Numbered from the stretch's first letter, positions 319 to 60,078 are shown. The stretch: 64,000 bases of DNA from Gemmatimonadaceae bacterium (GCA_020852815.1 JADZAN010000015.1:70840-134839); one strand, 5' to 3'. The notes: generated by a model not told the origin, from the letters alone. Translations and numbers: made by a program.

Positions 319-3300
319 ATGCGCCTTTCCATCCGCCGTGCAGCAGCGTCTGCTGTGCTGGCCACCGTCCTCGGCGCCTGCGCCGACAACGTCCCGCTTG
401 CCCCGTTGCTCGTCCAGCGCCCGTTCCTCGCGGGTGCCAGCGCGAACCCAGTCGTGCGGATCTCCGAGATCCACTACGACAACGGCGGGACCGATGCGGG
501 CGAGGCCATCGAGGTCTCGGCGCCGACCGGCACCGACCTCACCGGGTGGAGCGTGGTGCTCTACAACGGGAATGGCGGCGCCGCCTACGACACCAGGCCA
601 CTGAGTGGCGTGGTGGTGGACGCGTGCAGCGGGCGCGGGGTGGTGGTGCTGACCTACGCGGTGAACGGCATCCAGAACGGTGCCCCTGACGGGATGGCGC
701 TCGTGGACAACACGGGGGCGCTGGTCGAGTTCCTGAGCTACGAAGGCAGTTTCGCGGCGACCAGCGGCGCGGCGGCCGGCGCGACGTCGACCGATATCGG
801 CGTGAACGAGGCGGGGACCGAGCCGCTGGGACAGTCGCTGCAGCGCCAGCCGAACGGCACCTGGGGCGCACCGGCCGCCAGCACCTTCGGCAGCTGCAAC
901 GACAACGGCACCGCGCCGCCACCGGCGACGGTGACCGCCGTGACCATCTCGCCTAACGGCGCATCGCTCGCGGTCGCGGCCACACAGCAGTTCACCGCCA
1001 CGGCCACCGACTCCAGCGGCGCGACCGTCCCCACGGCCACCTTCACCTGGTCGAGCAGTGCGACCTCCGTGGCCACGGTGAGTGCGAGTGGGCTCGTGAC
1101 CGCCGTTGCGCCTGGCACCGCGCAGGTGATTGCGACCGAGGCCAGCGGCATGGCCGATACCGTCGCCGTGACCGTGCAGGGCGCGCCGCCGCCGACCAGT
1201 GTGCGCTTCTCCGAGATCCACTACGACAACGCCGGCACGGACGTCGGTGAGGCAATCGAGGTGGAGGGGCCGGCCGGGACCGATCTCACGGGGTGGAGCG
1301 TCGTGCTCTACAACGGGAATGGCGGCGGCGTGTACAACACGGCGTCGCTCTCCGGGACGATTCCCAACGTCTGTTCCGGGCGTGGCGTGGTCGTCGTCAA
1401 CTACCCGTCCAACGGCATCCAGAACGGCAACCCTGACGGCTTCGCCCTGGTCGACGCAGCCGGTTCGCTCGTCGAGTTCCTCTCCTACGGTGGGAGCTTT
1501 GTCGGCACGGCAGGTGCGGCCAACGGCATCGCCTCGCGCGACATCCTCGCCGCCGAAGTCGGCGTTCCCATCGGGCAATCGTTGCAGCTCCATCCGGCGT
1601 CCAACCTTTGGCAGCTGACGGCGGCAACTTTCGGCGCCTGCTACGGACAGACGCCCCCGCCACCCACCAACAGCATTACCTTCAGCGGACGCACCAGCTC
1701 CGATCCAGCGCTCCCGGTCGGCTTCGAGGACCAGCTCTTCGCCACCCTGCGTGACGGAGCGGGAACCGTACTCCCCACGACCTTCACCTGGAGCTCGGAA
1801 ACGCCCGCCATTGCCACGGTCGACGCCAACGGGGTCGTGCATGCCCTCTCCGTCGGCACCTTCATCGTGCGCGCCACGGCAGCTGACGGCACCACCGCCA
1901 CGTACTCACTCGACACGCAGGTCGCCACGGCCGGCGGGACCGCGCAGTACGGGAACAACACCGAGTTCGGCGTTCCGCTCGACGGCGACGCCAGCGACGA
2001 CCTGCTCGTGTCGCGCGCGGAGTTCACCTCATCCTTCAATCCGGCGCGCGGCATTCCCAACTGGGTGAGCTACGACCTCGACGCGTCGCACATCGGTGGC
2101 CAGGATCGCTGCGACTGCTTCACCTTCGACCCCGCGCTCCCCGCATCGCTGCCGCGCTACACCACGGCCGACTACACGGGTGCCGGCACCTTTGCCGGCT
2201 ACGGGATCGACCGCGGTCACCTGGCGCGCTCCTTCGATCGCTCGACGGGGCTGCTCGACAACGCCAGCACCTTCTACTTCTCGAACATCATTCCGCAGGC
2301 CGCCGACAACAACCAGGGGCCGTGGGCCGCGCTCGAGAACTTCCTCGGCGACGAGGCACGCGTGAACGACCGCGAGGTCTACATCATCGCCGGCGCCTCC
2401 GGGAACAAGGGAACGGTGAAGGGCGAGGGGAAGATCACGATTCCGGCCTACACATGGAAAGTTGCCGTCACCGTGCCGCGCAACACGGGACTGGCCGGGA
2501 TCGACGATCCATCCGACCTCACGGTGCTCGCCGTCGTGATGCCGAACGACCCGGGCATTCGCAGCATCCCATGGCAGACGTACGAGGTGACTGTGGACTC
2601 GGTGGAGGCGCTGAGCGGATACAACCTCCTCGCCCTCCTCCCCGACCAGGTCGAGATCGCCGTCGAGAGCAAGACCAAGGCGCCCATTGCGGCCGTCGAC
2701 GGCCCCTACACGTCAAAGGAAGGGAGCGGCATCGCGATGAGCGGCGCCGCCTCGACCGACCCGGATGGCGATGCGCTCACCTACGCGTGGAGCTTCGGCG
2801 ATGGCACCCTCGGCACCGGCGTCAGCGCCTCACACACGTACGCACAGGACGGCAGCTACACCGTGCAGCTCACGGTCACCGATGCGCGCGGGCTCAGCAC
2901 CACGACCGCGACAACGGCGACGATCGCCAACGTGGCGCCGAGCATCGCCGCGCTGGCGAGCGTGGCGCTGTATCCGGGCGAGCGCTACACCGCCAACGGG
3001 AGCTTCACCGATCCCGGCGTCGACCCGTGGAGCGCGACCGTCGATTACGGCCTTGGCGGCGGCCCAGTCGCACTCGCGCTCACCGGGAAGACGTTTGCCC
3101 TCTCGCAGGTCTACGCCACAGTGGGGACCTTCACCGTTCGCGTGAGCGTGGCCGATGATGACGCCAACGCCTCGCGCACCATGGTCGTCAACGTGCTCTC
3201 GGTGGCCGACGGGATCCTGGGGACGCAGGCGGCGTTGCAGCTGTACCTCGCCATGGGGCGCATCAGCCAGGGCGGCTACCAGCAACTCAACGCGATGCTG

Positions 3301-3474
3301 GGCGCCGCGCTCAACACGATCAACAACGGCCAGCGGCAGGCCGCCATTATCCAGCTCGACAACGTGCAGAGGGCCATCCGCCGCCTCGAGGCATCGGGAG
3401 AGCTGTCGAAGGGCGACGCCGCCACGCTGCGGACGCTCATGTCGCGCTTCATCCGGTCGTTGTCGCTCCCCTGA
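319..3474 (+). CDS. Secreted or lipoprotein multidomain DNA/RNA non-specific endonuclease: 2x(lamin-tail-like domain + Big_2) + Endonuclease_NS + 2x PKD-like + helical tail
   Basis: ATG at 319. Signal peptide with lipobox (LATVLGAC). Two copies of the module ISEIHYDN(G/A)GTD.GEAIEV..GTDLTGWSVVLYNGNGG, at about aa 48 and 298, each followed by a Big_2-like Ig domain (e.g. ISPNGASLAVAATQQFTATATD). Serratia-type nuclease motifs GIDRGHLARS and NIIPQAADNNQGPW. PKD motif DPDGDALTYAWSFGDG..HTYAQDGSYTVQLTVTD. Confidence 0.85.
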   Translation: MRLSIRRAAASAVLATVLGACADNVPLAPLLVQRPFLAGASANPVVRISEIHYDNGGTDAGEAIEVSAPTGTDLTGWSVVLYNGNGGAAYDTRPLSGVVVDACSGRGVVVLTYAVNGIQNGAPDGMALVDNTGALVEFLSYEGSFAATSGAAAGATSTDIGVNEAGTEPLGQSLQRQPNGTWGAPAASTFGSCNDNGTAPPPATVTAVTISPNGASLAVAATQQFTATATDSSGATVPTATFTWSSSATSVATVSASGLVTAVAPGTAQVIATEASGMADTVAVTVQGAPPPTSVRFSEIHYDNAGTDVGEAIEVEGPAGTDLTGWSVVLYNGNGGGVYNTASLSGTIPNVCSGRGVVVVNYPSNGIQNGNPDGFALVDAAGSLVEFLSYGGSFVGTAGAANGIASRDILAAEVGVPIGQSLQLHPASNLWQLTAATFGACYGQTPPPPTNSITFSGRTSSDPALPVGFEDQLFATLRDGAGTVLPTTFTWSSETPAIATVDANGVVHALSVGTFIVRATAADGTTATYSLDTQVATAGGTAQYGNNTEFGVPLDGDASDDLLVSRAEFTSSFNPARGIPNWVSYDLDASHIGGQDRCDCFTFDPALPASLPRYTTADYTGAGTFAGYGIDRGHLARSFDRSTGLLDNASTFYFSNIIPQAADNNQGPWAALENFLGDEARVNDREVYIIAGASGNKGTVKGEGKITIPAYTWKVAVTVPRNTGLAGIDDPSDLTVLAVVMPNDPGIRSIPWQTYEVTVDSVEALSGYNLLALLPDQVEIAVESKTKAPIAAVDGPYTSKEGSGIAMSGAASTDPDGDALTYAWSFGDGTLGTGVSASHTYAQDGSYTVQLTVTDARGLSTTTATTATIANVAPSIAALASVALYPGERYTANGSFTDPGVDPWSATVDYGLGGGPVALALTGKTFALSQVYATVGTFTVRVSVADDDANASRTMVVNVLSVADGILGTQAALQLYLAMGRISQGGYQQLNAMLGAALNTINNGQRQAAIIQLDNVQRAIRRLEASGELSKGDAATLRTLMSRFIRSLSLP

Positions 3475-3753
3475 CGGTGGGGCGCCGGGTTGTGCAGCCG
3501 GCGCTGAGTCTTAAGCACCGACCATCCCCTCGCGGCGCGCGCCGCGGGGGGATTGTCGTGTCGCAAGGTGGTGCGAAACACCGTCGCCGGTGGCGGCGAT
3601 TCGCTCTTGCGTTGCATCGCGTAGCTGCCGAGGATACGCCGACCGCCACGATGTGGCGGTTCGCCGGGGAGGACGGTCCTCGCTCCTCGCCATTCAAGGT
3701 TCACCTGCGCGCGTACCCGGCACGTCGCGCACCGGAATCCAGTCGACCAACCG

Positions 3754-6700
3754 ATGTCCGTCATCTCCCTGTTCTCGCGCCTAGTCGCCTGCGCGGCGAT
3801 GTGTGTCGCGCTCTCCCCGACCGTCGCGTTGGCCCAGCGCGCACCGCGCGCGACGCCGTCTGCATCCGCCAGCGCATCCGCCGCCCCGCCCTACAACCCC
3901 GCCATCTACTCCGACCCGTCGGCCACCAACAAGGCCTTCAAGTCGCTCCGCTGGCGGCTCATTGGCCCATTCCGCGGCGGGCGCGTGGACGCGGTCGCCG
4001 GCGACCCCACCAAGCCGCTGGTCTACTACATGGGCGCGGTGAACGGCGGCGTGTGGAAGACGGCCAACGCCGGGATGTCGTGGGACAACATCACCGACGG
4101 GAAGACCGACATTTCATCGGTAGGGGCGGTGACCGTCGCCCCGTCCGACCCGAACGTGATCTACGTGGGCACTGGCGAGTCGCAACTGCGCGAGGACCTC
4201 ACCTACGGCACCGGCGTCTATCGCTCCACCGACGCCGGCGAGACGTGGCAGCATCTGGGGCTCGTCGAGACGCACCAGGTGACGACGATTCGCGTGCATC
4301 CCAACAACCCCGACGTTGCCTATGTCGCGGCGATCGGGCACGCCTTTGGCCCCAACGCGGAACGCGGCGTCTTTCGCACGATGGACGGCGGAAAGTCGTG
4401 GAAGAAGATCCTCTTCCTCGACGACTCCACCGGCGCCACCGACCTGTCGATGGACCCGTCCAACCCGCGCATCATCTACGCGGCGATGTGGAAGTTCCAG
4501 CGCTCGCCCTGGGGCATGGAGGCCGGCGGCGGCAAGAGCGGGTTGTGGAAGACGACCGACGGCGGCGACACCTGGACCGACCTCTCCTCCAACCCCGGAA
4601 TGCCGAAGGCGCCGTTAGGCAAGATCGGGATTGCGGTGTCGCCGGCCAACCCGCGCCGACTCTTTGCCTCGGTGGAGGCCAAGGACACGCTGGGCGGGAT
4701 CTTCCGCTCCGACGACGCCGGCGCCACCTGGATGCGCACCAACGGCGAGCAGAAGTTCCAGGTGCGCCCCTGGTACTACTCGGCGGTCACCGCCGACCCC
4801 ACGAACGAGAACACGGTCTACGTGATGAACCTGCAGGTGTGGCGCTCGATCGACGGCGGCAAGTCGTTCACGCGCGTCCGCGTCCCGCATGGCGACACGC
4901 ACATCATGTGGGTCGATCCCAAGGACCCCAACCGACTCATCAACGGCAACGACGGCGGCGCCACCGTGTCGCAGGATGGCGGGAAGAGCTGGTCGTCGAT
5001 CATGAACCAGCCGACATCGCAGTTCTACCACGTCATCACCGACAACCAGTGGCCGTATCGCCTCTACGGCGCGCAGCAGGACAACAGCACCGTTTCCATC
5101 GCCTCGCGCTCGGACCATGGCGCCATCACGGAGCGCGACTGGTGGCCGGTGGCCGGGTGCGAGAACGCGCACATCGCCGTCGATCCGCGCAATCCCAACA
5201 TCACCTACGGCGGCTGCTACACGGGCATGCTGATGCGGCACGACAAGCGCACCGAGGAGTCGCGCGACATCGCGGTCTGGCTCAACAACTACGACGGCTG
5301 GGCGGTGAAGGATGTCCCCAACCGTTTCCAGTGGACCTTCCCCGTCCTCCTCTCGCCGCACGACCCCACCATCCTCTACGCCACCTCGCAGCACGTGTGG
5401 AAGTCGACCAACGAGGGGCGCAGCTGGGAACGCATCTCGCCCGACCTCACGTACGCCGACCCGGCCACGTTAGGCCCGTCGGGAGGGCCCGTCCACAAGG
5501 ACATGACGGGGACGGAGTGGTACGCGACGATCTACGCCTTCGCCGAGTCGCCGAAGGCGAAGGGAAACCTGTGGGCCGGCTCCGACGACGGGCGCGTGCA
5601 CCTGTCGCGTGACGGCGGTGCCTCGTGGAGCGAAGTCACGCCCAAGGCGATGGTGAAGCACACACGTATCACCGGGATCGAGCCCTCGCCGCATGACCCG
5701 GCGGTCGCCTACCTCTCGGCCACGCGCTACCAGCTCGACGATTTCCGTCCGTACTTCTACAAGACGAGCGACTACGGCAGGAGCTGGACGCGCATCGACG
5801 CCGGGATCCCGATGGGGGCCTACGCGCGCTCCATTCGCGAGGACCCCATGCGACGCGGCCTCCTGTTTGCCGCCACGGAGACCGGTGTCTACGTCTCGCT
5901 CAACGACGGCGCGGCGTGGGAGACGTTGCAGCTGAACCTGCCGCGCGTGAGCGTGCGTGACCTGCGCGTGCACGACAACGACGTGGTGGTCGCCACGCAT
6001 GGCCGTTCCTTCTGGTCGCTCGATGACATCGGCGCCATCCGCCAGCTGCACGACTCGGTGACCGCCAAGGCGTTGCACCTGTTCCAGCCGAGCGACGCCT
6101 GGCGATACGCCGGCGGCCGCGGGGGGCGCGGGGGGTCGTCCGGGGAGAATCCGTACGACGGCGTCCTGGTCGACTACTGGGTGGGAAAGGCTCCCACGGA
6201 AAAGCTCAGCATCGAGTTCGTCGACGCGCGCGGGGCGGTGATGCGCACATTCTCGAGCGCCACGAAGAAGGACAGTACCGCCAAGCCGGCCCCCGACTCG
6301 CTCGCCTACTTCGCCGCCGACTCGATCGTGAGCACGCGCGTGGGGAGCAACCGCTTCTTCTGGAACCTGCGCTATCCCAACGCCAAGGAGATCAAGACGG
6401 TGGTGAACGACATGGGGACGCTAACCGGCCCCAGTGTCGTTCCCGGGACATACACGGTGCGCCTCATTGCAGGGAAGGACACGCTGTCACGCCCGTTCAC
6501 CGTCAAGCTCGACCCGCGGATACAGGCCACCACCGCCGACCTGCAGCGCACCTTTGATCTCGGGATGAAGGTACGCGGCCGCATCGACGACATCGCCGAT
6601 GCCTTCGCGCGCATCGAGGACCTGCAGGGCCAGATCGACGTGCGCGTGAAGCAGTCGTCGGACCAGGCGTACGCGCAACGCGTGAAGGACGCGGCCAAGC

Positions 6701-7098: not shown

Positions 7099-7101
7099 GC
7101 C

Positions 7102-8778
7102 TCAGAGCGCTTCGTCCGGCTCTCGCTCGTTCGCGGCGCGCTCGTTCGCGGCACGCTCGGCCGACTCGCGCTCGTCCAGCACATGCTCGAACAGCGGCAC
7201 CAGCGCGGGATCGAAGTGCGAGCCCGCGTCGGCGCGGATGATCGCGATGGCCTGCGCGTGCGGCAGCCCGGGCTTGTAGCTGCGCGCCGTGGTAAGCGCA
7301 TCGTACACGTCGGCCAGGCCGAGGATGCGCGCCACTACCGGGATCCCCTCGCGCGCCAGCCCGTGGGGATATCCGGTGCCGTCCCACTTCTCGTGGTGCG
7401 ACAGGATGATGGGGATCACGTCTTCGGGGAAGTCGATCCCCTTGAGCAGCTCCACGCCGGCCTCGGGGTGCGAGCGCATCAGCGCCCATTCCTCCGCCGT
7501 CAGGCGCCCCGGCTTGTTGAGGATGTCGGGGGGGATGTCGATCTTCCCCACGTCGTGCAGGAGTGCCCCGACGCGGAACCAGAACATGCGCCGCTCGTCG
7601 AAGCCGGCGCGCCGGGCGAGTGCGCACGCCAGGTCGGCGACGCGCATGCAGTGTCCCTGCGTGTAGGCGTCCTTCGATTCGATCGACTCGCCCCATTCCC
7701 GCACGACATCGAGGAAGCCCACCTCGAGGCGCGTCTGCCGACGGTCGAGGTCGGCCAGGGCGCGGCGCGCGCGCAGCTGCCCGAACAGCTGGTGCGCCCG
7801 GTTGAGCGCCTGCACCGTCTCGCGGTAGCGCCCCAGGCGCGACAGGAGTTCCGCATGTTCGCGCGACAGCTCGGCCTGCAGCAGCACATCCTGTCGCAGC
7901 GATGCCAGCGCCGAGCCTAACGAGAACTCGCGCTCGGCGGACTCGGCATCGTCGCGCTCGCGGGCAATGACGCCCAGGTGCTTGCGCAGCTCGGCCTCGG
8001 CGCGGGCATCCCCCATCTCCCGCGCCATGGGGAGCGCGCGGCGGCAGACCTCCTCGGCGTCGGCAATGCGCCCTTGCGCCAGGGCCAGCTCCGCCTGGTT
8101 GCCCAGCACGACGAGGAGCGACGCGCGGTTCCCCTCGCGCTCGGCCAGGAGCGACGCCTGACGGTAGGCGGCGGCCGCCGAGTCCCACTCGCCAAGGTCG
8201 GTGTGCAGCATCCCGAGGTTGTTGAGCGCCCCGCTCACCTCGCGCCACATCCCCAAACGCTGGTATGCCGCAATGCACTCACGGTAGTGCGACATGGCAC
8301 GGGTGATGTCGCCCCGCACGTTGGCGATGATGCCGCGGTTCTGCGCCGTCATCGCCGTCAGCCGCATGTCGCCCGCCCGCGCCCCGCAGGCGTGCGCCTC
8401 GCGGTACAGGCGGTCGGCGGCATCGAGGTCGCCGCGCTGCCAGAAGATCACCGCGCGGATGTTGAGCGCGCGCCCCAGCGCGGCATCCGGCCCGCTGGCC
8501 GAGGCGACGAACTGCCCCACCTCGAGCACGTCGAGCGCGGCGTCCGATTCACCGTCCGTCTGCCAGGTGCGCGCAATCCCGCACAGCGCGTCGATCACCA
8601 CGGCAGGATCGAGCCCGGTCTCGCGACAGTGGATGGCCTGTTCGTAGAGCGAACGCGCCACTGCACGGTGCCCCGCACGCTCTTCCTTCTCGGCGCGCAC
8701 GACCATCTCCCGCGCTTCGGCGCACGCGGGAGCGTCGGCGCCAAGCGCGCCGGGAATGAGGTGCGAATCTGTCGACAT
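7102..8778 (-). CDS. HD-GYP domain protein (putative c-di-GMP phosphodiesterase) with N-terminal TPR-like repeats
   Basis: The C-terminal half contains HDVGKIDIP and HHEKWDGTGYP. About 330 aa of TPR-like helical repeats sit at the N-terminus. The ORF-track start at 8823 is GTG; I prefer the first ATG at 8778 (MSTDSH...), but the start is uncertain. Confidence 0.8.
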   Translation of the reverse strand: MSTDSHLIPGALGADAPACAEAREMVVRAEKEERAGHRAVARSLYEQAIHCRETGLDPAVVIDALCGIARTWQTDGESDAALDVLEVGQFVASASGPDAALGRALNIRAVIFWQRGDLDAADRLYREAHACGARAGDMRLTAMTAQNRGIIANVRGDITRAMSHYRECIAAYQRLGMWREVSGALNNLGMLHTDLGEWDSAAAAYRQASLLAEREGNRASLLVVLGNQAELALAQGRIADAEEVCRRALPMAREMGDARAEAELRKHLGVIARERDDAESAEREFSLGSALASLRQDVLLQAELSREHAELLSRLGRYRETVQALNRAHQLFGQLRARRALADLDRRQTRLEVGFLDVVREWGESIESKDAYTQGHCMRVADLACALARRAGFDERRMFWFRVGALLHDVGKIDIPPDILNKPGRLTAEEWALMRSHPEAGVELLKGIDFPEDVIPIILSHHEKWDGTGYPHGLAREGIPVVARILGLADVYDALTTARSYKPGLPHAQAIAIIRADAGSHFDPALVPLFEHVLDERESAERAANERAANEREPDEAL

Positions 8779-19296: not shown

Positions 19297-19346
19297 GCGG
19301 TGGAGCGTTTGGCGCCGGTGCGTCAGGTGTCAGGGCGTTAGGCGCA
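19287..19346. repeat. Tandem array of four 15-nt units, consensus GGnGCGTTAGGCGnn
   Basis: The units are GGGGCGTTAGGCGGT, GGAGCGTTTGGCGCC, GGTGCGTCAGGTGTC and AGGGCGTTAGGCGCA. The first overlaps the TAG stop at 19294-19296. The array lies between convergent genes. Confidence 0.8.
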
Positions 19347-26178: not shown

Positions 26179-26211
26179 GAGGGGCTCCCGAGACTCTGGT
26201 GCGGAGAATGC

Positions 26212-50206: not shown

Positions 50207-51043
50207 CTAGAAGACGAGCGAGAACGAGACCGGGATTGCCGACACGCTCTTGAAGAACGTCTTGCTGCCATCGACCGGGATCTGGCGCAGCCGGGCCTCG
50301 AGCCCGCCGCCTAACGGGCCGAGCTTGAAGCGAATCCCCGCGCCCGCGTTGTACGCCCACTCCACGCCGTCCAGCGCCTCGCCCACGGTGGTCACGTCGG
50401 TGCGGAACGAGACGGCGCCAATCCCGCCAATGAGATACGGCTGGAACCCGCGCGGGCCGAGGGGGAGTTCGAGGTTGGCAAAGGTCCCCAGCAATGAGGA
50501 GATCGCCCCGTCGCCCAGCTTGTTGAGGTCGGGGAGCTTGGGGGCGGCCAGCGCCTGCGCCTGCAGCTGGCGGGTAGCGCCGCGCGCTGCTCCCGGCTGC
50601 ACCGACGCATACGCCACCGGCTGCCGCGCCAGCGATGCCGCCAGTGCGCGCACCTTCTCCTCGATCACGCTAAAGCGCATGTAGGCCAGCTCCGGGCGCA
50701 AGCGGAGCTTCTGGTGAAGGACGGCGACGATGACCGAGCCGCTCGCCTGTACCCCCAGGTCGTGATAGGTGGAGAAACCGCCCGTCGGGACCGAGGCGCC
50801 GCCCGAGAGGACCAATCGCACGCGACGCGGCCCGTTAGGCTGCGCCGACGGCGACGGTGGCGACACGGCCTGTGCTGCCAGCGAACTGGCGAGCGTGGTT
50901 ACGGCAACCGTGATCGCGGCGACGGCTGCAACGAAGCGCCCCGCCGCCGTCCATCCCCTCCACGCCGCCCGGACCGCCGTACGTGCCGCTTCCATCCGCG
51001 CCGTTGTCTCTCCGCTCGCCGTTGCGACACCTGATGTCCGCAT
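50207..51043 (-). CDS. Outer-membrane beta-barrel protein (OmpW/porin-like, small)
   Basis: Signal peptide ending SLAAQA. Alternating beta-strand pattern. C-terminal ..IPVSFSLVF with a terminal Phe. Start is ATG 51043 or 50995; the rest of ORF 50207..51691 is not credible. Confidence 0.6.
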   Translation of the reverse strand: MRTSGVATASGETTARMEAARTAVRAAWRGWTAAGRFVAAVAAITVAVTTLASSLAAQAVSPPSPSAQPNGPRRVRLVLSGGASVPTGGFSTYHDLGVQASGSVIVAVLHQKLRLRPELAYMRFSVIEEKVRALAASLARQPVAYASVQPGAARGATRQLQAQALAAPKLPDLNKLGDGAISSLLGTFANLELPLGPRGFQPYLIGGIGAVSFRTDVTTVGEALDGVEWAYNAGAGIRFKLGPLGGGLEARLRQIPVDGSKTFFKSVSAIPVSFSLVF

Positions 51044-51383: not shown

Positions 51384-53921
51384 ATGTCCGGCCACACCCT
51401 CCCAGCGCGTCGAGCGCTCGCGCGCCTTCGTTGTGCGATCGCCCCGCTCTGCCTCGCGATCGTCGCTGCCTGCGGCGGCGACGGTGGCTCGACCTCACCG
51501 CCACCCACCCCCCAGGGCTTCGCCGTCGCGCTCTCGGCCAACTCGCTCTCCATCGAACAGGGGGCATCGGGGAGCATCACGGCAACGGTCACGCGTACCG
51601 GCGGCTTCACCGGCGCTGTCGACGTGAGCGCCGAGGGGCTCCCCAGCGGCGTCACGGCTACGCTGACACCATCGAGCATTGGCAGCGGCACGACGACCGG
51701 CTCGCTCGCCGTGAGCGTTGCGACGTCGGTCGCCCCCGGCAGCTACAACTTCACCATCCGCGCCAAGGCGACCGGGCTGAGCGACCAGACCTTCACCGCA
51801 TCGCTCAGCGTGACCGCCAAGCCGGTCATCACCGTGGCGCTTGCTCCGGCCACGGCTTCCATTGCACAGGGCGGGAGCGGCTCGTTCAAGGCGACCATCG
51901 CGCGCACCAACTTCACGGGTAGTGTTGCCGTCGCCGTCACCGGCGCCCCAACCGGCGTCACGACGACCGTCACGCAGTCGGCCGACACCTTCGCCGTTGC
52001 CGTCGCCGTCAGCCTCAACACGCCTCAGGGGAACTACCCGCTCACCGTCACCGCCTCGGGGAGTGGCGTCTCCAACGCAACGGCCACCTACACGCTCGCT
52101 GTCGTCGCGCGCCCGGCGAGCATCGCCCTCGCAGTGTCGGGTTCGACCACCCTCACCACCTCGGCGGGAGGGGCCAACGTCTCGGCGACCATCATCATCA
52201 ATCGCACCGAGTACCTGGGTGACGTCACGCTCGCCGTTGCGGGGACGCTCCCCAACGGCGTGTCGGCGACCTTTGCTCCGTCGCCCACCTCCGGCAACTC
52301 CATCACGGCGACCTTCTCCACCACGGCACAGACGGTGGCCGCGACCTATCCCATCACGCTCAAGGGGTCGGGGACAGGGATCACCGATGCCACCGTGGCA
52401 ATCACGCTCGTCGTGAACCCGGTGGCGTCCATCTCGTCCATCACGCTGAGCCGCACCACGCTCTCCATCGCGCAGGGTGGAACCGACGCCACGAGCGTGA
52501 GCATCGTGCGCAGCAACTTCGCGGGGGCGGTCACCTTCGCCGTGAGCGGGCTCCCGAACGGCGTCACCGCCGATTTCGGCGTCAATCCCACTGGGGGAAA
52601 CGGCGCCACGCTCACGTTCAGTGTGCCGGCAGGCGCAACGCCGGGAAGTTCGGTCGTGACCGTCACCGCCTCGGGGGCGGGGATCGCCACGGTCTCGGCG
52701 CAGCTCACGCTCACCATCACGCCGGGCGGCCAGACCGGGAACGCCACGTTCCAGTTCTGCGGCAGCGCGAGCAACACGCCGCTCTGGTTCGCGGCGCAGA
52801 CGGGTTCCACATGGCAGCAGATCCTCCCGTCGTCACCCAACGCGTACTCGATCACCGTCGGGAACAGCGCTGGTGTGGCGTGGGTGACGCAGGACGACGC
52901 GACCACGACGACCCTGCACATCTTCTATGGCACGCAGTCCGAGCTTGCGGAGCGCGCAGCGACTCAGTGCGTGTCGCCCAGCGGGAAGACGGTGACCGGA
53001 TCGGTGGCGGGGCTCGCGATCACGGACGCCGCCACGGTCAGCTTCGGGGGGCAGAGCGCGGCATCGCTCACCTCGTTCGCCCCGAATTTCACGCTGTCCA
53101 ACATTCCCGACGGAGTGCACGACCTGGTCGCCGCCCGCTTGCAACTGCCGGGGATGCAGGCCGACCGTATCATCATCCAGCGCGGACTCAACCCGGCCAA
53201 CAACTCATCGTTGGGAACGCTGAACTTTGCCGGCGCTTCGGCTATCACCACCGTGCCGCGCACCGTGAACGTGCAGGGGGTGGCCGGTGGCGAGTCGGTC
53301 ACCGCCTTCGCCGCCCTCAGGACCGCGAACGGGACGAGCGCGACAGTCGGCATGGCGCTTCCCGGCGCCTCGACCACGCCGCAGGTGAACGTCGTCCCCG
53401 CCGCGTCACTCGTGACCGGTGACCTGCACACCTTCACCGCCATGGCGGGGATCGTGGCCAGCAGCGTCATGACCATGGGGCGTGTCGTGACGCACCTGAC
53501 GTCGAGCGCGGCGAACCCCACGCTGGCGTTAGGCCCGGACCTCAACGCGCCGACCGTCTCCACCTTCGGCTTGCAGGGAGGCGTGATCCGCGTGCGGACC
53601 GCGTTCCCCATCCAGGCGCAGTACAACTCCCTTTGGGTCCTGGGCTACGCACAGAGTTCGGGCGGTGCCAATCGCAACGTCGAAGTGGTGGTGAGTGGTG
53701 CCTACCAGAACCTCGTGAACGGGGCGTCGTTCGGGAACAACATGCCCGACTTCTCCATCGTCCCGGGGTGGCAGTCTGCGTGGGGGCTGCAGAACAACGT
53801 CCTGATCTCGTGGTCGGTGTACGGCTTCGGCTGGTCGCTGGGGAGTGGCCTGTCGCAACCCATCCTCGACGGCACCACCATCCTCGGTGCGTTCAAGACG
53901 GGGAGTTACACCCCGCCCTGA
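51384..53921 (+). CDS. Large lipoprotein with four tandem ~100-aa Ig-like repeats and a ~400-aa C-terminal domain
   Basis: ATG 51384. Lipobox LAIVAAC. Repeats spanning nt 51519-52730 share LSIxQGGSGSxxATIxRTNFTGAVxxAVSGLPxGVTAxF..TVTASG. The C-terminal domain has no motif I recognise. Confidence 0.75.
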   Translation: MSGHTLPARRALARLRCAIAPLCLAIVAACGGDGGSTSPPPTPQGFAVALSANSLSIEQGASGSITATVTRTGGFTGAVDVSAEGLPSGVTATLTPSSIGSGTTTGSLAVSVATSVAPGSYNFTIRAKATGLSDQTFTASLSVTAKPVITVALAPATASIAQGGSGSFKATIARTNFTGSVAVAVTGAPTGVTTTVTQSADTFAVAVAVSLNTPQGNYPLTVTASGSGVSNATATYTLAVVARPASIALAVSGSTTLTTSAGGANVSATIIINRTEYLGDVTLAVAGTLPNGVSATFAPSPTSGNSITATFSTTAQTVAATYPITLKGSGTGITDATVAITLVVNPVASISSITLSRTTLSIAQGGTDATSVSIVRSNFAGAVTFAVSGLPNGVTADFGVNPTGGNGATLTFSVPAGATPGSSVVTVTASGAGIATVSAQLTLTITPGGQTGNATFQFCGSASNTPLWFAAQTGSTWQQILPSSPNAYSITVGNSAGVAWVTQDDATTTTLHIFYGTQSELAERAATQCVSPSGKTVTGSVAGLAITDAATVSFGGQSAASLTSFAPNFTLSNIPDGVHDLVAARLQLPGMQADRIIIQRGLNPANNSSLGTLNFAGASAITTVPRTVNVQGVAGGESVTAFAALRTANGTSATVGMALPGASTTPQVNVVPAASLVTGDLHTFTAMAGIVASSVMTMGRVVTHLTSSAANPTLALGPDLNAPTVSTFGLQGGVIRVRTAFPIQAQYNSLWVLGYAQSSGGANRNVEVVVSGAYQNLVNGASFGNNMPDFSIVPGWQSAWGLQNNVLISWSVYGFGWSLGSGLSQPILDGTTILGAFKTGSYTPP

Positions 53922-53962: not shown

Positions 53963-53995
53963 GGGCGCGCGGTGCGCGTTAGGCACCGCGCGCCC
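53963..53995. terminator. 13-bp GC-rich hairpin downstream of the repeat lipoprotein gene
   Basis: GGGCGCGCGGTGC (53963-53975) pairs with GCACCGCGCGCCC (53983-53995). The loop is GCGTTAG, so the CGTTAGG motif (53977-53983) spans the loop and the first base of the 3' arm. A near-copy of the 3' half occurs at 54005-54025. Confidence 0.4.
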
Positions 53996-54051
53996 CTGGT
54001 GGCTGGCGCGTCAGGCACCGCGCGGCGGCGACAGACGCTAACATTCGTCGC

Positions 54052-54447
54052 ATGACGACACCGCCGGTTTTCCCGTACGAGCAACTGGGGGGGGAGGAAG
54101 GGATCCGTCGCCTGGTCGATCGCTTCTACGACCTCATGGATTCGTCGCCCGAGGCGGCGAACGTGCGCGCGCTCCACGCGGCGAGCCTCAAGCGCTCGCG
54201 CGAGAAGCTCTTCATGTACCTCACGGGATGGACCGGCGGGCCGCCGCTATACGAGGAACAGTTCGGCCATCCGCGCCTGCGCATTCGGCACATGCCGTTC
54301 GCGATTGGCGAGCGCGAGCGTGACGAATGGCTCTGGTGCATGGAGACGGCGCTCGACGAGCACCCCATGCCCGACGAGCTGCGTGAGTTCCTGCGCGGCA
54401 AGATCCGCCACCTGGCCGACTTCATGCGCAACCAGGGCGACGCCTAA
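54052..54447 (+). CDS. Group II truncated haemoglobin (trHbO-like)
   Basis: 131 aa. YEQLGGEEGIRRLVDRFYDLM..LFMYLTGWTGGPPLYEEQFGHPRLRIRHMPFAIGERERDEWL is typical of the 2-on-2 globin YjbI/GlbO family. Confidence 0.85.
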   Translation: MTTPPVFPYEQLGGEEGIRRLVDRFYDLMDSSPEAANVRALHAASLKRSREKLFMYLTGWTGGPPLYEEQFGHPRLRIRHMPFAIGERERDEWLWCMETALDEHPMPDELREFLRGKIRHLADFMRNQGDA

Positions 54448-55316
54448 CGAAACAGCGGAACGCGCTCCAGGAAGCGCTCGTCGCCAATGGCGGCGCAGAA
54501 GGCGGTGAGCGCCGCGCGGTCGGCGCCGCGCCACCGCAGGTCGTCGAGCGACTCAGCGAGCGGGACGTCGGTGCGAAGCGTGGCCAGCGTGCGATAGAGC
54601 CTCGCCTCCGTGCGATGCGTGCGAAGCTGCTCGGCGAGCGCGGCCGCTCCCCTAACCGTCACTCCCCACGCCCCCTCGGCGTCCGGGATGTCGTCCAGGG
54701 TTCGGTAGTGCGCGAGCACGACCGCCGCCGATTTCGCCCCCCACCGCGGAATACCGGGGATGCCGTCGGCGCTGTCGCCCACCAGGGCGAGGAAGTCAGG
54801 GATCGACGATGGCGGGATGCCGAACTTCTCCACGACCCCGGCCTCATCCGTGACCTTGCGCCGGATGCGGTCGAGCGCCACCACGCGCGCACCGTGCACG
54901 CACTGCATGAGGTCCTTGTCGGGGGAGCAGATCACGACCTGCTCCACGCCCGGCGCTTCGCTCCAGCGGGCCGCCGCGGTGGCAATCGCATCATCGGCCT
55001 CGAATTCCACCATGGGCCAGGTGACGAGCCCAAGGGCGCGCGTGGCCGACTCGGCGAGCGGGAACTGCGCCAGCAGCTCGGGTGGGAGCCCCTCTCCCGT
55101 CTTGTAGTCCGGGAAGAGTCGGTTGCGGAACGACTCGATGACGTGGTCGAAGGCCACGCCCACGTGCGTGACCCCGGGCTCCCGGAGGAGGACGAGGAGG
55201 GAGCGCAGGAGGGCGCGCGTGGCGCCGACTTCGCGACCGTCAGGTGCAAGTACCGACGGGGCGCCAAAATGGGCGCGGAACAGTTCGAAGGTGCCGTCGA
55301 CGAGGTGCAGGCGCAT
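54444..55316 (-). CDS. Stand-alone 5'-3' exonuclease / flap endonuclease (Pol I N-terminal-domain-like)
   Basis: ATG 55316 (MRLHLVDGTFELFRAHF). Acidic motifs EADDAIAT and SPDKDLMQ. H3TH region LVGDSADGIPGIPRWGAKSA. The stop overlaps the globin stop (CTAA, 54444-54447). Confidence 0.85.
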   Translation of the reverse strand: MRLHLVDGTFELFRAHFGAPSVLAPDGREVGATRALLRSLLVLLREPGVTHVGVAFDHVIESFRNRLFPDYKTGEGLPPELLAQFPLAESATRALGLVTWPMVEFEADDAIATAAARWSEAPGVEQVVICSPDKDLMQCVHGARVVALDRIRRKVTDEAGVVEKFGIPPSSIPDFLALVGDSADGIPGIPRWGAKSAAVVLAHYRTLDDIPDAEGAWGVTVRGAAALAEQLRTHRTEARLYRTLATLRTDVPLAESLDDLRWRGADRAALTAFCAAIGDERFLERVPLFR

Positions 55317-55588: not shown

Positions 55589-58366
55589 ATGCGAGGAACG
55601 CTCATTCGCGTAGCGGGGACCGTGGGAGCAATGCTGTTGGTCGCCGCCGCGTCATCGACGCCGGTTGCCGCACAGACAGGAACGATCCAGGGCAGGGTCA
55701 CCGATAGCACCGGTGCGGTGATCGTCGGCGCGATGTTCACGGTCGATGGCAGCGGGGCCCGCGGCACATCAACGGCCCGCGGCCGCTACGCGTTAGGCGG
55801 CGTCCCCGCCGGTCGGCGCACCATGCGCGTGCGCGCGCTCGGCTTCTCTCCCGAGTCCATCGCCGTCAACGTCGCCGCCTCGCAGGTCACCGAGATCGAC
55901 GTCATCCTCACCCGCTCGGCGTACCAGCTTGCGCCGGTCCAGACACTCGTCGGCTCGCGCGCCAAGCACACCGCCGCCGAGGAGCTGGCCGTGCCGGTCG
56001 ACGTCTACACGGTGGAGGAACTCAAGCGCACCGGCTCCACCGAGACGACGCAGATCCTCGCCAACCTGTCGCCCTCGGTGAACTTCCCCACGCAACCGGT
56101 GACAGATGCCACCGAAGTGGTGCGCCCCTTCACGCTGCGTGGCCTCTCGCCCGACCATTCGCTGGTGATGATCAACGGGATGCGCCGCCACCAGACGGCG
56201 CTCCTCAACGTCTTCTCCAACGGTTCCGCGCCGGGCTCGAGCGGCGTCGACCTCAATGCCTTCCCGTCCAGCGCCATCGAGCGTATCGAGGTGCTGCGCG
56301 ACGGCGCCTCGACGCAGTACGGTTCCGACGCCATCGCCGGCGTCGTCAACCTCGTCCTCAGGGAAGGGCAGTTCTCCCCCTTCATCAACACGTCGTTCGG
56401 GCAGAACCGCCCCGGCGATCCCTATCCCAACGACGGTTTCACCTCCGACGTGAACGGCGGTGTGGGTTTCAAGCTGGGACGTGGTTCGCTGTCGCTCTTT
56501 GGGCAGTACATGAAGCGCGACAAGGCCAACCGCGCCTGCCCCGATGGGTCGTTCCCCGACCTCAACGGGAACAGCGACCTGGTGCAGGACTGTCGCGTGG
56601 TGCAGAAGCGCGCCGCCGTGGCCCAGCCTAACGTGAACTGGGGGCTCGGCCTCGAGCGCGACATCCACACCTTCGCCAACCTGCGCCTCCCGCTCAACGC
56701 CAGCGGCACCACCGAGTTCTACGCCTTTGGCGGCATCTCCGATCGCGACGGCACGGGCAACGGCTTCTTCCGAAAACCGCAAAACGGGCGCAACTGGCCC
56801 GAGATCTATCCCATGGGCTTCCTCCCCGAGTTCCGCCCCGCCGTGACCGACTACTCGGCGGCCGCCGGCGTTCGCGGCGCACTCGGTGGTTGGGCCACCG
56901 ACCTCGGGATGAACTACGGCTACAACGGCTTCGACTTCAACCTGCGCAACACGCTCAACTCCTCGCTCGGCCCATCGCTCTCCACTGCGACGGCGCCTGG
57001 CAAGGATGGACGACTCGGCACCGCCGACGATCCGGGGATCCCGAACCAGACGTCGTTCTACGCCGGCGCGTTGCGACGCGGCGAGTTCAACACCAACCTC
57101 AGCCTCTCCAAGTCGATCGAGATGGGGTTCCCCAACCCGGTCAACGTCGCGATCGGAGGGGCGTTCCGCTCGGAGAGCTATGAAGTCGTGGCCGGTGAGA
57201 CAGCCTCGTGGATCAACGGCTATCACCTCACGAGCGACTCATCGGACATCGCCCAGGCCGGCTCGTCGGTCTTTCAGGGCTTCGGGCCGAGCGATGCGAG
57301 CAAGAACAGCCGCAACAACGTGGGGCTGTACGCCGACCTCGAAACGAACCTGACGCGGAACGTCCTCGTCAACGCCGCCGGCCGTTACGAGAACTACAGC
57401 GACTTCGGATCCAAGGCGACGGGGAAGTTTGCGCTGCGCTACCAGCCGCGAAAGGAATTCGTCTGGCGCGCCGCCGCCAGCACCGGCTTCCGCGCGCCGG
57501 GGCTCGCGCAGAGCTGGTACTCGCACACCACGACCGCCATCCAGAACGGCGTCCTCATCGAGATCGGCAACTTCCCGGTGACAAACAAGGCGTCGCGTGT
57601 CTTCGGCGCCAAGCCGCTCACACCCGAGACGTCGATCAACCTCAGTACCGGCATCGCGTGGTCGCCGACCAACGCCTTCAACGTCACCGTCGACCTGTAC
57701 CACATCAGCATTGCCGACCGCATCCTCCTGGGCGCCACGTACGACGGCACCTCGGATCCCGTCGTGGCCAGGATCCTTGCCGACTCCGGCCTGACGACGA
57801 TTGCCGGCGTGCAGTTCCCGACCAACGCACTCGACACCAAGACCGACGGCGTGGACGTGGCGGCGAACTATCGCACGGTGGTCGGGAGCGGGACGCTCGA
57901 CTTCGCGCTCTCCTTCAACTTCACGAAGAACAAGGTCACGCGCATCGATCCGCTCCCGAAGATCCTGCAGGGGACCAACACGATCTACACCGACGCACTC
58001 GACCCGGTCACCGTCAACTCGATCGAGAAGGCGCGCCCTGATCGTCGTTCGTCGTTCACCACGAACTACAACCTCGGGCGCTTCCATGCGATGGGGCGCG
58101 TGCAGGACTACGGCAAGTTCGTGGACGGGAGCCTGGATGGCCTCGAGACCTTCGGCGCCAAGCAGCTCTTCGACGCGGAGATCGGCTACCGCTACGACGC
58201 CATCAACGTCTCTGTCGGGTCGCGCAACATCTTCAACACCTTCCCCGACCAGGTGAAGGTGGAGGCGAACACGAACAACGGGACGTTCATCTATCCCGCT
58301 GCGTCTCCCTTCGGCTTCAACGGGCGCTTCATCTACGTGCGCACCGAGATCCTGCTCACGCGGTAG
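55589..58366 (+). CDS. TonB-dependent receptor with N-terminal CarboxypepD_reg domain
   Basis: ATG 55589 and a signal peptide. GTIQGRVTDSTGAVIVGA..GRYALGGVPAG is the carboxypeptidase-regulatory-like part. The plug has VDVYTVEELKRTGSTETTQILANLSPSV..RGLSPDHSLVMINGMRR. A long beta-barrel follows. Confidence 0.9.
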   Translation: MRGTLIRVAGTVGAMLLVAAASSTPVAAQTGTIQGRVTDSTGAVIVGAMFTVDGSGARGTSTARGRYALGGVPAGRRTMRVRALGFSPESIAVNVAASQVTEIDVILTRSAYQLAPVQTLVGSRAKHTAAEELAVPVDVYTVEELKRTGSTETTQILANLSPSVNFPTQPVTDATEVVRPFTLRGLSPDHSLVMINGMRRHQTALLNVFSNGSAPGSSGVDLNAFPSSAIERIEVLRDGASTQYGSDAIAGVVNLVLREGQFSPFINTSFGQNRPGDPYPNDGFTSDVNGGVGFKLGRGSLSLFGQYMKRDKANRACPDGSFPDLNGNSDLVQDCRVVQKRAAVAQPNVNWGLGLERDIHTFANLRLPLNASGTTEFYAFGGISDRDGTGNGFFRKPQNGRNWPEIYPMGFLPEFRPAVTDYSAAAGVRGALGGWATDLGMNYGYNGFDFNLRNTLNSSLGPSLSTATAPGKDGRLGTADDPGIPNQTSFYAGALRRGEFNTNLSLSKSIEMGFPNPVNVAIGGAFRSESYEVVAGETASWINGYHLTSDSSDIAQAGSSVFQGFGPSDASKNSRNNVGLYADLETNLTRNVLVNAAGRYENYSDFGSKATGKFALRYQPRKEFVWRAAASTGFRAPGLAQSWYSHTTTAIQNGVLIEIGNFPVTNKASRVFGAKPLTPETSINLSTGIAWSPTNAFNVTVDLYHISIADRILLGATYDGTSDPVVARILADSGLTTIAGVQFPTNALDTKTDGVDVAANYRTVVGSGTLDFALSFNFTKNKVTRIDPLPKILQGTNTIYTDALDPVTVNSIEKARPDRRSSFTTNYNLGRFHAMGRVQDYGKFVDGSLDGLETFGAKQLFDAEIGYRYDAINVSVGSRNIFNTFPDQVKVEANTNNGTFIYPAASPFGFNGRFIYVRTEILLTR

Positions 58367-58384
58367 CTTTTTTCGCTGCTGTTC

Positions 58385-58417
58385 ACGCGGGGTCCGGGAT
58401 CGTTCCGGACCCCGCGT
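58385..58417. terminator. 13-bp hairpin downstream of the TonB receptor gene
   Basis: ACGCGGGGTCCGG (58385-58397) pairs with CCGGACCCCGCGT (58405-58417), with a 7-nt loop. A T6 run (58368-58373) precedes the stem rather than following it. Confidence 0.4.
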
Positions 58418-58446
58418 CGTATCGCCCCTCGCGCCCGCCCGGCCCC

Positions 58447-59808
58447 GTGGTTCCTTCCTCGCCAGCCGCAACCTCCGCACCGGCCGCCACGCCCGACGAC
58501 TCGCTGCGCCACTTCGGCGTAGGGGCCGCCACCGCCGTGATGGTGGGGAACATGATCGGGACCGGCGTCTTCACCGCGCTTGGCTTCCAGGCGCAGGCCC
58601 TGCACACCGGGGCAGCGCTGCTCGCGCTGTGGGCCGTGGGCGGGATCATCGCGCTGTGCGGAGCGCTCGCCTACGCCGAGTTGGGGACCATGTACCCGCA
58701 CTGCGGCGGGGAGTACGTCTACCTCGCGCGCGCGTGGCACCCCATGGCCGGCTTCCTGGGCGGGTGGACGTCGATGACGGTTGGCTTTGCCGCTCCCATC
58801 GCGCTGGCCGGGATCGCCTTCGGGCGCTACCTGTCGGCGATCGTCGCCGTCCCGCCGCTCGTGGCCTCGCTGGTAGTGCTGGGCGTCGTGGCGTTCGTGC
58901 ACCTGGCGGGGTTGCACGCCGCCAAGCGCTTCCAGGTCCTGATCACCGTGGTGCAGCTCGTCCTCATCGGCGCATTCATCACCGCGGGATTGCGGCACCA
59001 ACCGGCGGCGCCGCTCGCCATGGGGCACGAGGGGGCGGCAGTGCGCGAGATGCTCTCGGCGCCCTTCGCCGTCTCGCTCGTGTACGTCTCGTATGCTTTC
59101 ACCGGATGGAACGCCGCCGGCTATATCGCCGGGGAGATCTACACGCCGCAGCGCTCCATTCCGCGTGCCGTCGTCCTCGCGACGGCGATCGTCACCGTGC
59201 TGTATCTCCTCCTCAACTGGTCGTTCCTCCGCACCGTCCCCCTCGCCGACGTCGCAGGCAAGGTCGAGGTCGGGGCGCTCTCGGCGCACGCGATGTTCGG
59301 GCGCACGGGGACCGTCGTGATGAGCGCCATCATCGCCACGGTGCTCATCGCGACCATCAGTGCCCTGGTGCTTGGCGGGTCGCGCGTGACGTACGCCGTC
59401 ATGGCCGACCTCCCCCGCTGGCGATGGTTGGGGAAACGCGCGGCCAACGGCGTTCCGCGCAACGCCATCCTCCTGCAGGTCGTGCTGATCCTCGTCCTGC
59501 TCCTCACCAACTCGTTCGAGCAAGTGATGCTGTACGCGGGGTTCACGCTCAACCTCTCCACGTTGCTCACCATCCTGGGCATGCTGCGGCTCCGCGTCAC
59601 GCAGCCGCAGGCGCCGCGCCCATATCGGGCGTGGGGTTTCCCCGTCACGACCTTTGTCTACATCGCGCTCTCGCTGTGGACGCTCGGGACGCTGTTGCGC
59701 GAGCGCCCGCTGGAGTCGATCAGCGGGTTGGGGACGCTGGTGATCGGGATCGGGGTGTGGTGGGTGGCGCATCGGCCGGTGGCGACAACCGGTGTCGGCG
59801 CACGTTAG
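58447..59808 (+). CDS. APC-superfamily amino-acid permease
   Basis: GTG start at 58447. About 12 TM segments. GVGAATAVMVGNMIGTGVFTALGFQ is typical of the APC N-terminus. Confidence 0.85.
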   Translation: MVPSSPAATSAPAATPDDSLRHFGVGAATAVMVGNMIGTGVFTALGFQAQALHTGAALLALWAVGGIIALCGALAYAELGTMYPHCGGEYVYLARAWHPMAGFLGGWTSMTVGFAAPIALAGIAFGRYLSAIVAVPPLVASLVVLGVVAFVHLAGLHAAKRFQVLITVVQLVLIGAFITAGLRHQPAAPLAMGHEGAAVREMLSAPFAVSLVYVSYAFTGWNAAGYIAGEIYTPQRSIPRAVVLATAIVTVLYLLLNWSFLRTVPLADVAGKVEVGALSAHAMFGRTGTVVMSAIIATVLIATISALVLGGSRVTYAVMADLPRWRWLGKRAANGVPRNAILLQVVLILVLLLTNSFEQVMLYAGFTLNLSTLLTILGMLRLRVTQPQAPRPYRAWGFPVTTFVYIALSLWTLGTLLRERPLESISGLGTLVIGIGVWWVAHRPVATTGVGAR

Positions 59809-60078
59809 GCGCCTCCCATGCACTGGGCGCCGTCGGGGCTCGCCCCTCGCTCGACGACACGCCCCAGTCGAGTCGTCACTACCAGGAAAGGTGCGCTGCG
59901 CGTGCAGCCTTTCGCGCGGTCACGCAGCGATGAAAGCGGAGAACATCGCGCAAACTGAAGGGATATCGCCGATGCGTATACGAGCCGCACGGCGCAGTGT
60001 ATGATGTCCCGCGCGTGACGACCGTGTGGTTCGTCCCGGGACCTTCAAGGCCGAGTGTTTCTCGGCAGGGAGGGCGAC

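Follow-up and report, generated by a model that had tools for sequence, protein, structure and literature searches.

The genome of an uncultured soil bacterium of the Gemmatimonadaceae (GCA_020852815.1, G000 hereafter) is pervaded by an asymmetric 8-mer, CGTTAGGC on one strand and GCCTAACG on the other, and a directional force acts on this double-stranded 8-mer whatever its reading frame or orientation. The element came to notice in a stretch of 64,000 nucleotides (the window, JADZAN010000015.1:70840-134839, which is C15:70840-134839 of an assembly of 5.38 Mb in 47 contigs with 68.6% G+C), where an original prediction made from the sequence had pointed to the heptamer CGTTAGG/CCTAACG. The roughly 2,000 genomic copies of the 8-mer, which we call the word, were written by many independent point substitutions, most of them synonymous and some amino-acid-changing. 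Judged by sequence, the word also matches a recombination box of the integrons of the same order, and we tentatively favor the reading that it is spread by sequence-biased acquisition of DNA.

Identity and abundance of the word

An exact search of the window recovered 32 copies of the heptamer, 18 on the plus and 14 on the minus strand, which reproduces all the copies and start positions and the approximate strand split of the original prediction. The prediction had compared this number with a mononucleotide expectation of 6-7 and had arrived at an about 5-fold excess. The arithmetic holds, but this null is too generous: 100 dinucleotide-preserving shuffles of the window gave 2.6 ± 1.9 copies (maximum 8), and the excess, although real, was understated and amounts to about 12-fold. 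The enrichment persists genome-wide, with 2,451 heptamers exceeding the expectation 11-, 18- and 8-fold under Markov models of orders 1, 2 and 3, respectively. Under orders 4 and 5 the heptamer excess vanishes, but only because the counts of the sub-words are themselves dominated by the word; no 5-mer of the genome deviates more than CCTAA, and CG comes next in 2,451 of the 3,059 copies of this 5-mer.

CGTTAGG is the core of a longer unit, the 8-mer. With 1,966 genomic copies, the 8-mer exceeds the prediction of an order-2 Markov model 38-fold, and no other 8-mer of the genome is over-represented to the same degree; in the window, 26 of the 32 copies carry it in full and the others carry the heptamer only. 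None of the 21 heptamers that differ from the core by one mismatch is comparably enriched in this genome, and the flanks of the 8-mer show only a weak preference, for G/T on the 5' side and G/A on the 3' side (K-CGTTAGGC-R), in coding and unannotated DNA alike. We rejected a longer repeat or the core of a miniature inverted-repeat transposable element as the source of the word; the flanks beyond ±1 are uninformative save for codon periodicity, and orthologues differ by substitutions, not by insertions. The original prediction had found the enrichment but missed the 8-mer unit, its spread through a clade and its match to the integron R box, all of which are described below or above.

Two other words are over-represented in the same genome, namely TTGCAGCTG/CAGCTGCAA (652 copies, 27-fold against order 2, mostly coding) and TCGTCTTCT/AGAAGACGA (576 copies, 21-fold against order 2, 361 of them outside genes).

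Reading frames and proteome imprint

The frames were assigned with our own crude gene calls (3,298 open reading frames (ORFs), covering 79.5% of the genome), and the null was obtained by shuffling synonymous codons within genes. All four stop-free frames were enriched, 10- to 56-fold over the shuffles. The main frame, NCG-TTA-GGC, was observed 998 times against 17.7 (56-fold), nnG-CCT-AAC-G 268 times against 27, nnC-GTT-AGG-C 74 times against 2.4, and NGC-CTA-ACG 49 times against 4.2. The stop-bearing frames are used at gene ends, with CGT-TAG-GC in 129 genes and GCC-TAA-CG in 55, and the word overlaps 184 stop codons in this way. The density of the 8-mer was 0.32 per kb in coding DNA and 0.37 per kb outside the calls. 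Translation-level selection on TTA-GGC is ruled out, because enrichment is just as strong in the antisense, stop-codon and non-coding classes; the word acts at the DNA level and is not a codon effect.

When we counted the peptide sites that can accommodate the word, 23% of the [SPTA]-Leu-Gly tripeptides were spelled with it in the sense direction, and 30% of the compatible x-Pro-Asn-[VADEG] sites in the antisense direction. Occupancy is comparable in the two directions, so the 3:1 excess of sense copies comes from coding opportunity and not from a strand preference. The commonest spelling of Ala-Leu-Gly in the genome is GCG-TTA-GGC. TTA codons lie inside CGTTAGG in 1,218 of 1,679 cases genome-wide (73%), the remainder being mostly in one-off variants, and in 16 of 22 cases in the window, so that the bulk of them is indeed in the motif while the earlier statement that nearly all are was too strong. 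Both near-motifs noted at that time, AG-TTA-GG and TG-TTA-GG, were found. Under our calls the tally of frames in the window was slightly lower than first proposed for xCG-TTA-GGx (16 against 17) and CCT-AAC-G (6 against 8) and agreed for GTT-AGG (1 against 1); the remaining 9 copies fall at gene ends, in spacers or in uncalled ORFs.

The genome has a single tRNA-Leu(UAA) gene, and its surplus of TTA, CTA, AGG and CCT codons and of TAG stops is a by-product of the word. The imprint reaches the proteome, where ALG is found 1,938 times against 1,214 for GLA (1.6-fold) and SLG 925 times against 608 for GLS, and where Arg stands at the C-terminus of 21% of the genes against 8.8% Arg overall. Stop usage is odd for a genome of 69% G+C (TAG 1,267, TGA 1,677 and TAA 341), and the word, with its 129 CGT-TAG-GC ends, accounts for just part of the skew in stops and terminal Arg.

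Orientation and spacing

The 8-mer occurs 1,001 times in the forward and 965 times in the reverse orientation. The local imbalance tracks gene-strand bias (r=0.60), and the copies outside genes (146:155) are unrelated to gene-strand bias or GC skew. Replichore polarity, as in Chi or FtsK-orienting polar sequences (KOPS), was not found in the non-coding copies of G000, a metagenome-assembled genome (MAG) of 47 contigs with weak GC skew and no rigorous replichore map, which limits this test.

The density of the 8-mer is 0.3-0.45 per kb on nearly all contigs. Close neighbors are fewer than expected, with 66 distances of ≤200 bp against 140 expected and 230 of ≤500 bp against 330 expected, which amounts to short-range repulsion. 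Low-density islands as a sign of foreign DNA were considered and dropped, given that the counts in 20-kb windows are Poisson-distributed and only 2 such windows hold ≤1 copy. There are 24 direct pairs or arrays genome-wide, for example four copies 20 bp apart at C2:436187-436247.

Origin and conservation of word sites

The origin of individual sites was followed in a codon alignment of an AcrB-like pump (window 22993-26178) with 80 orthologues, all of them from Gemmatimonadaceae or Gemmatimonadota MAGs. At an Asn-Ile-Val-Arg-His segment, most genomes have ATC-GTG-CGC/CGG and five have ATC-GTT-AGG, with GTC-AGG intermediates. At an Ala-Leu-Gly segment, CTC/CTG became TTA at a conserved residue, and some origins alter the amino acid too (Ile to Leu through ATC to TTA, and Leu/Ile to Gly). 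Most of the documented word sites were created by 2-3 changes, transversions among them (GTG-CGG to GTT-AGG, CTC to TTA, ATC to TTA), and not just through the transition from CGTTGGG. Enrichment is also seen, at 12- to 31-fold, in frames whose one-step precursor is non-synonymous.

Conservation was examined by comparing the window with three syntenic relatives (G031, G033 and G035). G031, whose nucleotide identity is 88%, has the identical word at 14 of the 18 sites that aligned, against 42% for all 8-mers (p=0.002), and G035, at 77% identity, has it at 4 of 6, against 15% for all 8-mers (p=0.006). The copy at 26210..26217 is also kept at many orthologous loci. The word was created by multi-step substitution and has been preserved beyond the neutral expectation.

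Distribution across genomes

Within the genus, each of the 13 genomes has 1,100-7,800 copies, against 6-40 in most sister genera. Among the genomes behind the AcrB loci, the word-rich set reaches more distant lineages, with up to 6,360 copies. In a survey of 251 Gemmatimonadota genomes, the amplification was seen in about 9 of 106 genera, which belong to three families of one order; the density in the amplified genera is 84-1,280 copies per Mb, and a genome elsewhere has 2-40 copies.

When closely spaced TCGTTAGGC pairs were searched for in a collection of species-representative genomes, the matches came mainly from Verrucomicrobiota. The loci of Chthoniobacterales, which are soil Verrucomicrobiota, contain 1.49 words per kb over 266 kb in an orientation of 202:194. 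The same scan returned an array with a 58-bp period and four matches in Kribbella steppae, and same-strand clusters with a 1:12 orientation in MAGs of Cyclobacteriaceae; the latter look like cassette arrays and not like genome-wide amplification.

Relationship to the integron R box

Integron recombination sites contain R boxes with the consensus RYYYAAC (inverse core) and GTTRRRY (core), and GTTAGGC is a canonical instance of GTTRRRY. The few copies in the word-poor sister genomes recur about every 550 bp in arrays on one strand, and one of these arrays (G021:C80) adjoins an integron-integrase gene. We had considered these arrays as repeats of one very long gene, but they turned out to be integron cassette arrays made of canonical attC sites of the form GCCTAAC-G...L''...L'...T-GTTAGGC. 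When the attC sites of two sister genomes (G019 and G021) were anchored on the L'' arm, the R'' box with its next base read GCCTAACG in 40 of 51 sites and GTCTAACG in 7. By this comparison of sequences, all 8 positions of the word coincide with the R'' (inverse-core) box and the base that follows it in the attC sites of this order. The cassette arrays of the sister genomes are large (G021:C80:1-7400, G021:C95:1-20000 and others), and their attC sites, which measure about 90-100 nt, vary very little from one to the next (GCCTAACGGATCGCGCTTAAGCTGCGGCGCGC...GCTTCAAGCGCTTGTTAGGC).

G000 has an integron integrase (IntI) of its own on the minus strand of C18 at about 186988-188383, which scored 393 bits against a cut-off of 265. 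Two attC-like hairpins (C18:183349-183442 and 177358-177435) lie between small minus-strand ORFs downstream of intI, and the integrase and the cassettes appear to be co-oriented. In the whole genome, R''..R' pairs gave 16 matches over both strands at about 10 loci, and only those on C18 are near intI. Over 99% of the words stand alone and do not form attC sites; they are not arrayed by intI and are spread in a Poisson-like manner over all contigs. Integrase above the curated cut-off was present in 26 of 31 genomes of the order, word-poor ones and G000 included, and it was not detected at E<=1e-60 in the word-rich G040, G046, G147 (99% complete), G016 and G189, although MAGs lose integrons easily. 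IntI as the determinant of the amplification was rejected, being neither sufficient nor demonstrably necessary.

Interpretation of the word

The original prediction had left two explanations side by side, a DNA word under selection and a context-specific C-to-T hotspot. The first is upheld in its general form, in that all frames, stop codons and non-genic DNA are enriched, the orientation is even and the sites are conserved between species; the agent of this selection is less certain. The best reading, which we hold with slightly less than even confidence, is that the word resembles the DNA uptake sequence (DUS) of Neisseriaceae and the uptake signal sequence (USS) of Pasteurellaceae and would be spread by sequence-biased DNA acquisition. 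Some step of acquisition would favor the word, either binding or uptake by type IV pilus, ComEA or ComEC, or the survival or recombination of incoming DNA. Homologous recombination would then replace resident alleles by word-bearing ones more often than the reverse, and molecular drive would saturate the sites where coding permits the word. The profile is that of a DUS or USS because an exact word is present in thousands of copies with balanced orientation, with accommodation in peptides and an imprint on the proteome, and because it shows conservation between species, short-range repulsion and lineage-specific dialects. Among the proteins encoded by G000 are ComEC, a ComEA-like protein and type IV pilins.

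Several points weigh against this interpretation. First, ComEC is universal in the order, word-poor genera included, so that the toolkit is permissive only and ComEC had to be rejected as a discriminator, and ComEA and the type IV pilins were checked in G000 only. Second, two PilA-like pilins scored 18-19 bits with the ComP_DUS profile, below its cut-off of 27.3 bits. Third, terminator-type inverted pairs are nearly absent from G000, with only 2 inverted pairs within ≤60 nt against the 24 direct ones, and the variance/mean of the 20-kb windows is 1.02, as for a Poisson distribution. Fourth, a word shared by two phyla is odd for a 'self' tag of kin recognition, and the uptake model gives no reason to expect its identity with the R box, which may indicate that another protein is involved. 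Finally, our literature search found no report of the word, of competence or of uptake sequences or uptake bias in Gemmatimonadota, and all genomes used here are MAGs, with gene calls that are our own and crude.

The coincidence with the R box might be accommodated if the specificity of the receptor had been recruited from, or tuned to, cassette-carrying DNA; such a receptor would likewise account for the amplification of the word in an unrelated phylum of soil bacteria. Natural transformation supplies the single-stranded DNA from which chromosomal integrons recruit cassettes (PMC12614218). It is conceivable, although we regard it as doubtful, that two or more unrelated soil phyla, Gemmatimonadota and Verrucomicrobiota among them, have co-opted the integron R box as a tag for uptake or recombination. 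If so, transformation would be biased to cassette-carrying DNA and to other word-bearing lineages, it would be mechanistically coupled to cassette capture, and the two phyla would share a gene pool.

An alternative that we consider unlikely, but that takes the 8/8 match in 40 of 51 sites at face value, is that the solitary words are duplex R boxes bound by IntI or by an IntI-derived or -associated protein, with weak selection on each site; they might also be attG-like landing pads for the insertion of cassettes away from the integron, or decoys or regulators that titrate the integrase. The integrase in 26 of 31 genomes and the attC-like hairpins near the intI of G000 fit this alternative, both word-amplified phyla are listed as integron-bearing (PMC8618304), and IntI is able to insert cassettes at double-stranded genomic sites (bioRxiv 10.1101/2022.09.11.507474). 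However, these published genomic insertion sites (attG) require only GWT and no full R box (bioRxiv 10.1101/2022.09.11.507474). Moreover, most word-poor genomes have IntI while the five word-rich genomes named above are without a detected one, the solitary copies have no L box or hairpin partner, landing pads within essential genes would be expected to be counter-selected, and any effect of cleavage at the word should be towards its loss.

It is improbable that the word serves genome maintenance in the manner of Chi, as one version of the original prediction had it, with a RecBCD/AddAB-type enzyme or a nucleoid protein that recognizes it and selection that maintains it. The word would then mark resident DNA, guard it against degradation or organize the chromosome. 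An asymmetric 8-bp word at about 1 per 2.7 kb that is clade-specific and conserved suits such a role, and the protection of incoming word-bearing fragments would likewise generate drive. On the other hand, the non-coding copies are unbiased with respect to gene-strand bias and GC skew and the local bias comes entirely from the coding frame, within the limits of the 47-contig assembly, and the identity with the R box is left unexplained. The known excess of Chi is also far below the 38- to 56-fold seen here.

One other hyper-iterated 8-mer is known, the conserved and quasi-periodic HIP1 of cyanobacteria, which has recently been linked to methylases and transformation (PMC4390886, PMC5861425, bioRxiv 10.1101/2024.09.10.611283). 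An orphan methyltransferase that recognizes the word or part of it, with methylation-dependent repair or transformation favoring the word, would be its counterpart here, and we give this only a small chance. The word is not palindromic, and the phyletic patterns of Vsr and of the C5- (PF00145) and N6/N4-methyltransferases (PF01555) do not match its density, so that we rejected all three as determinants; gamma-class N6 enzymes are outside this test. The three families are sporadic. The word-rich G009 and G010, the latter being the closest relative of G000, have none of the three, and Vsr is absent also from G001, the densest genome. G000 itself has adjacent C5-methyltransferase and Vsr genes of the Dcm-Vsr type (C22:10193-11462), which occur in only some genomes of the genus and are probably a mobile restriction-modification remnant.

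Scarcely credible is the mutational hotspot, in which m5C deamination or another context-dependent C-to-T change would turn CGTTGGG/CCCAACG into the word with no selection on it: the single transition expected from a hotspot does account for a few of the differences between close genomes (at 49501, with CGTTGGGC, and at 12983, with GCCCAACG, both in G031), but origins by 2-3 changes with transversions and the enrichment in frames with a non-synonymous precursor lead us to reject a single C-to-T hotspot, and in addition CCCAACG stands at 0.78 of expectation with no notable depletion in G000, many word-rich genomes have no C5-methyltransferase, and the sites are conserved and not in flux. The remaining probability belongs to something not yet imagined.

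Copies in the window

The copies in the window are listed in Table 1. The array at 19287-19346 is short and degenerate, and consists of two exact words and two one-off variants (CGTTTGG and CGTCAGG). The window also contains a plus-strand ORF of 1,051 amino acids (319-3474) with a DNA/RNA non-specific endonuclease domain and lamin-tail, Big_2, PKD and FIMAH domains. Its predicted product looks like a secreted or surface nuclease and could matter for the processing of extracellular DNA.

Table 1. Word copies in the window, with reading frame or context and state in the syntenic relatives.
Copy	Position	Strand	Frame or context	Relatives
8-mer (GCCTAACG on +)	951..958	-	read CCT-AAC-G, + gene	
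8-mer (CGTTAGGC)	4613..4620	+	xCG-TTA-GGC	kept in G035
8-mer	5468..5475	+	xCG-TTA-GGC	CGTTAGGT in G035
8-mer	7915..7922	-	xCG-TTA-GGC, - gene	
heptamer only (CCCTAACG)	9515..9521	-	TTA frame, - gene	
heptamer only (ACCTAACG)	11731..11737	-	outside gene calls	
8-mer	12983..12990	-	CCT-AAC-G frame	GCCCAACG in G031
8-mer	13255..13262	+	TTA frame	kept in G031
heptamer only (CGTTAGGG)	14362..14368	+	TTA frame	
8-mer	17314..17321	+	TTA frame	kept in G031, G035
8-mer	18639..18646	-	CCT-AAC-G frame	kept in G031
8-mer	19291..19298	+	tandem array 19287-19346, convergent spacer	kept in G031
8-mer	19336..19343	+	second exact copy of tandem array 19287-19346	
8-mer	20016..20023	+	antisense CCT-AAC-G frame of - strand ggt gene	kept in G031
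8-mer	26210..26217	-	stop of membrane-fusion gene (CGT-TAG-GC on -), directly upstream of AcrB-like pump	kept in G031
8-mer	27472..27479	-	TTA frame	kept in G031, G035
heptamer only (CGTTAGGG)	31491..31497	+		full 8-mer in G031
8-mer	31938..31945	+	TTA frame	kept in G031, G033
8-mer	37985..37992	+	xxC-GTT-AGG-C (Val-Arg)	CGTGCGGC in G031, word in G035
8-mer	38251..38258	+	TTA frame	kept in G031, G033
heptamer only (CCCTAACG)	42967..42973	-	TTA frame	
heptamer only (CCCTAACG)	44319..44325	-	TTA frame	8-mer in G033
8-mer	45344..45351	-	TTA frame	kept in G031
8-mer	49501..49508	+	antisense CCT-AAC-G frame	CGTTGGGC in G031
8-mer	50309..50316	-	gene boundary	kept in G031
8-mer	50833..50840	+	outside gene calls	CGGAGGGC in G031
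8-mer	53527..53534	+	TTA frame	kept in G031
8-mer	53977..53984	+	spacer or gene end	
8-mer	54442..54449	-	gene end	at least heptamer kept in G031
8-mer	55791..55798	+	TTA frame	kept in G031, CGCTAGGC in G033
8-mer	56626..56633	-	CCT-AAC-G frame	kept in G031, GCCCAACG in G033
8-mer	59803..59810	+	gene end or spacer	

Significance

To our knowledge, hyper-iterated 'self' words have been described in no more than three groups of bacteria, namely Neisseriaceae, Pasteurellaceae and cyanobacteria. Such words are the main natural handle on how sequence-biased acquisition of DNA shapes genomes, and the word of Gemmatimonadaceae would be a fourth case, in soil phyla that are abundant yet poorly studied. 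It is strong enough to rewrite about a quarter of the Ala/Ser/Thr/Pro-Leu-Gly codons and to set TTA usage; the unexpected parts are the match to the integron R box and the sharing across phyla. If the uptake reading is true, natural competence is predicted in Gemmatimonadaceae and Chthoniobacterales, addition of the word to donor DNA would be a simple route to genetic tractability, and transformation would be linked to cassette capture. In addition, the word is a clean marker for binning and contamination of word-rich MAGs, and a caveat for inferences on codon usage and on TTA-based regulation.

Comparison with known systems

Chi sites (e.g. GCTGGTGG of E. coli) are likewise asymmetric, over-represented and taxon-specific 8-mers, but the word has no replication-linked polarity and a far larger excess. 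HIP1 (GCGATCGC) is a hyper-iterated 8-mer as well, with a 15- to 300-fold over-representation (PMC5861425); it too is kept at orthologous positions, and its function, which is debated, has recently been tied to transformation and horizontal transfer. HIP1, however, is palindromic and lies within the recognition sites of two orphan methylases, whereas the word is asymmetric and does not co-vary with the methylase families tested (PF00145 and PF01555, which do not cover the gamma class). The integron attC site shares with the word its dominant R'' box in this order, GCCTAAC-G, yet the genome-wide copies are solitary duplex words in ordinary genes, with no L box, hairpin partner or nearby intI, and their abundance is uncoupled from intI.

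The DUS of Neisseriaceae (GCCGTCTGAA and its dialects) and the USS of Pasteurellaceae (AAGTGCGGT core) differ from the word in several respects. The word belongs to another phylum, is only 8 bp long and has a predicted uptake role; it does not form the inverted terminator pairs that are a trait of Neisseria, although not a universal one; the candidate pilins score below the ComP_DUS cut-off; and the word is amplified in a second, unrelated phylum and coincides with the integron R box. The likeness is nevertheless broad. As in the DUS and USS, a short asymmetric word is present in thousands of copies with equal orientations, is written in coding frames for common peptides with a visible imprint on the proteome, is common to related species with 'dialects' in its flanks and absent from sister lineages, and occurs in close pairs more rarely than by chance, in genomes where competence genes are present.

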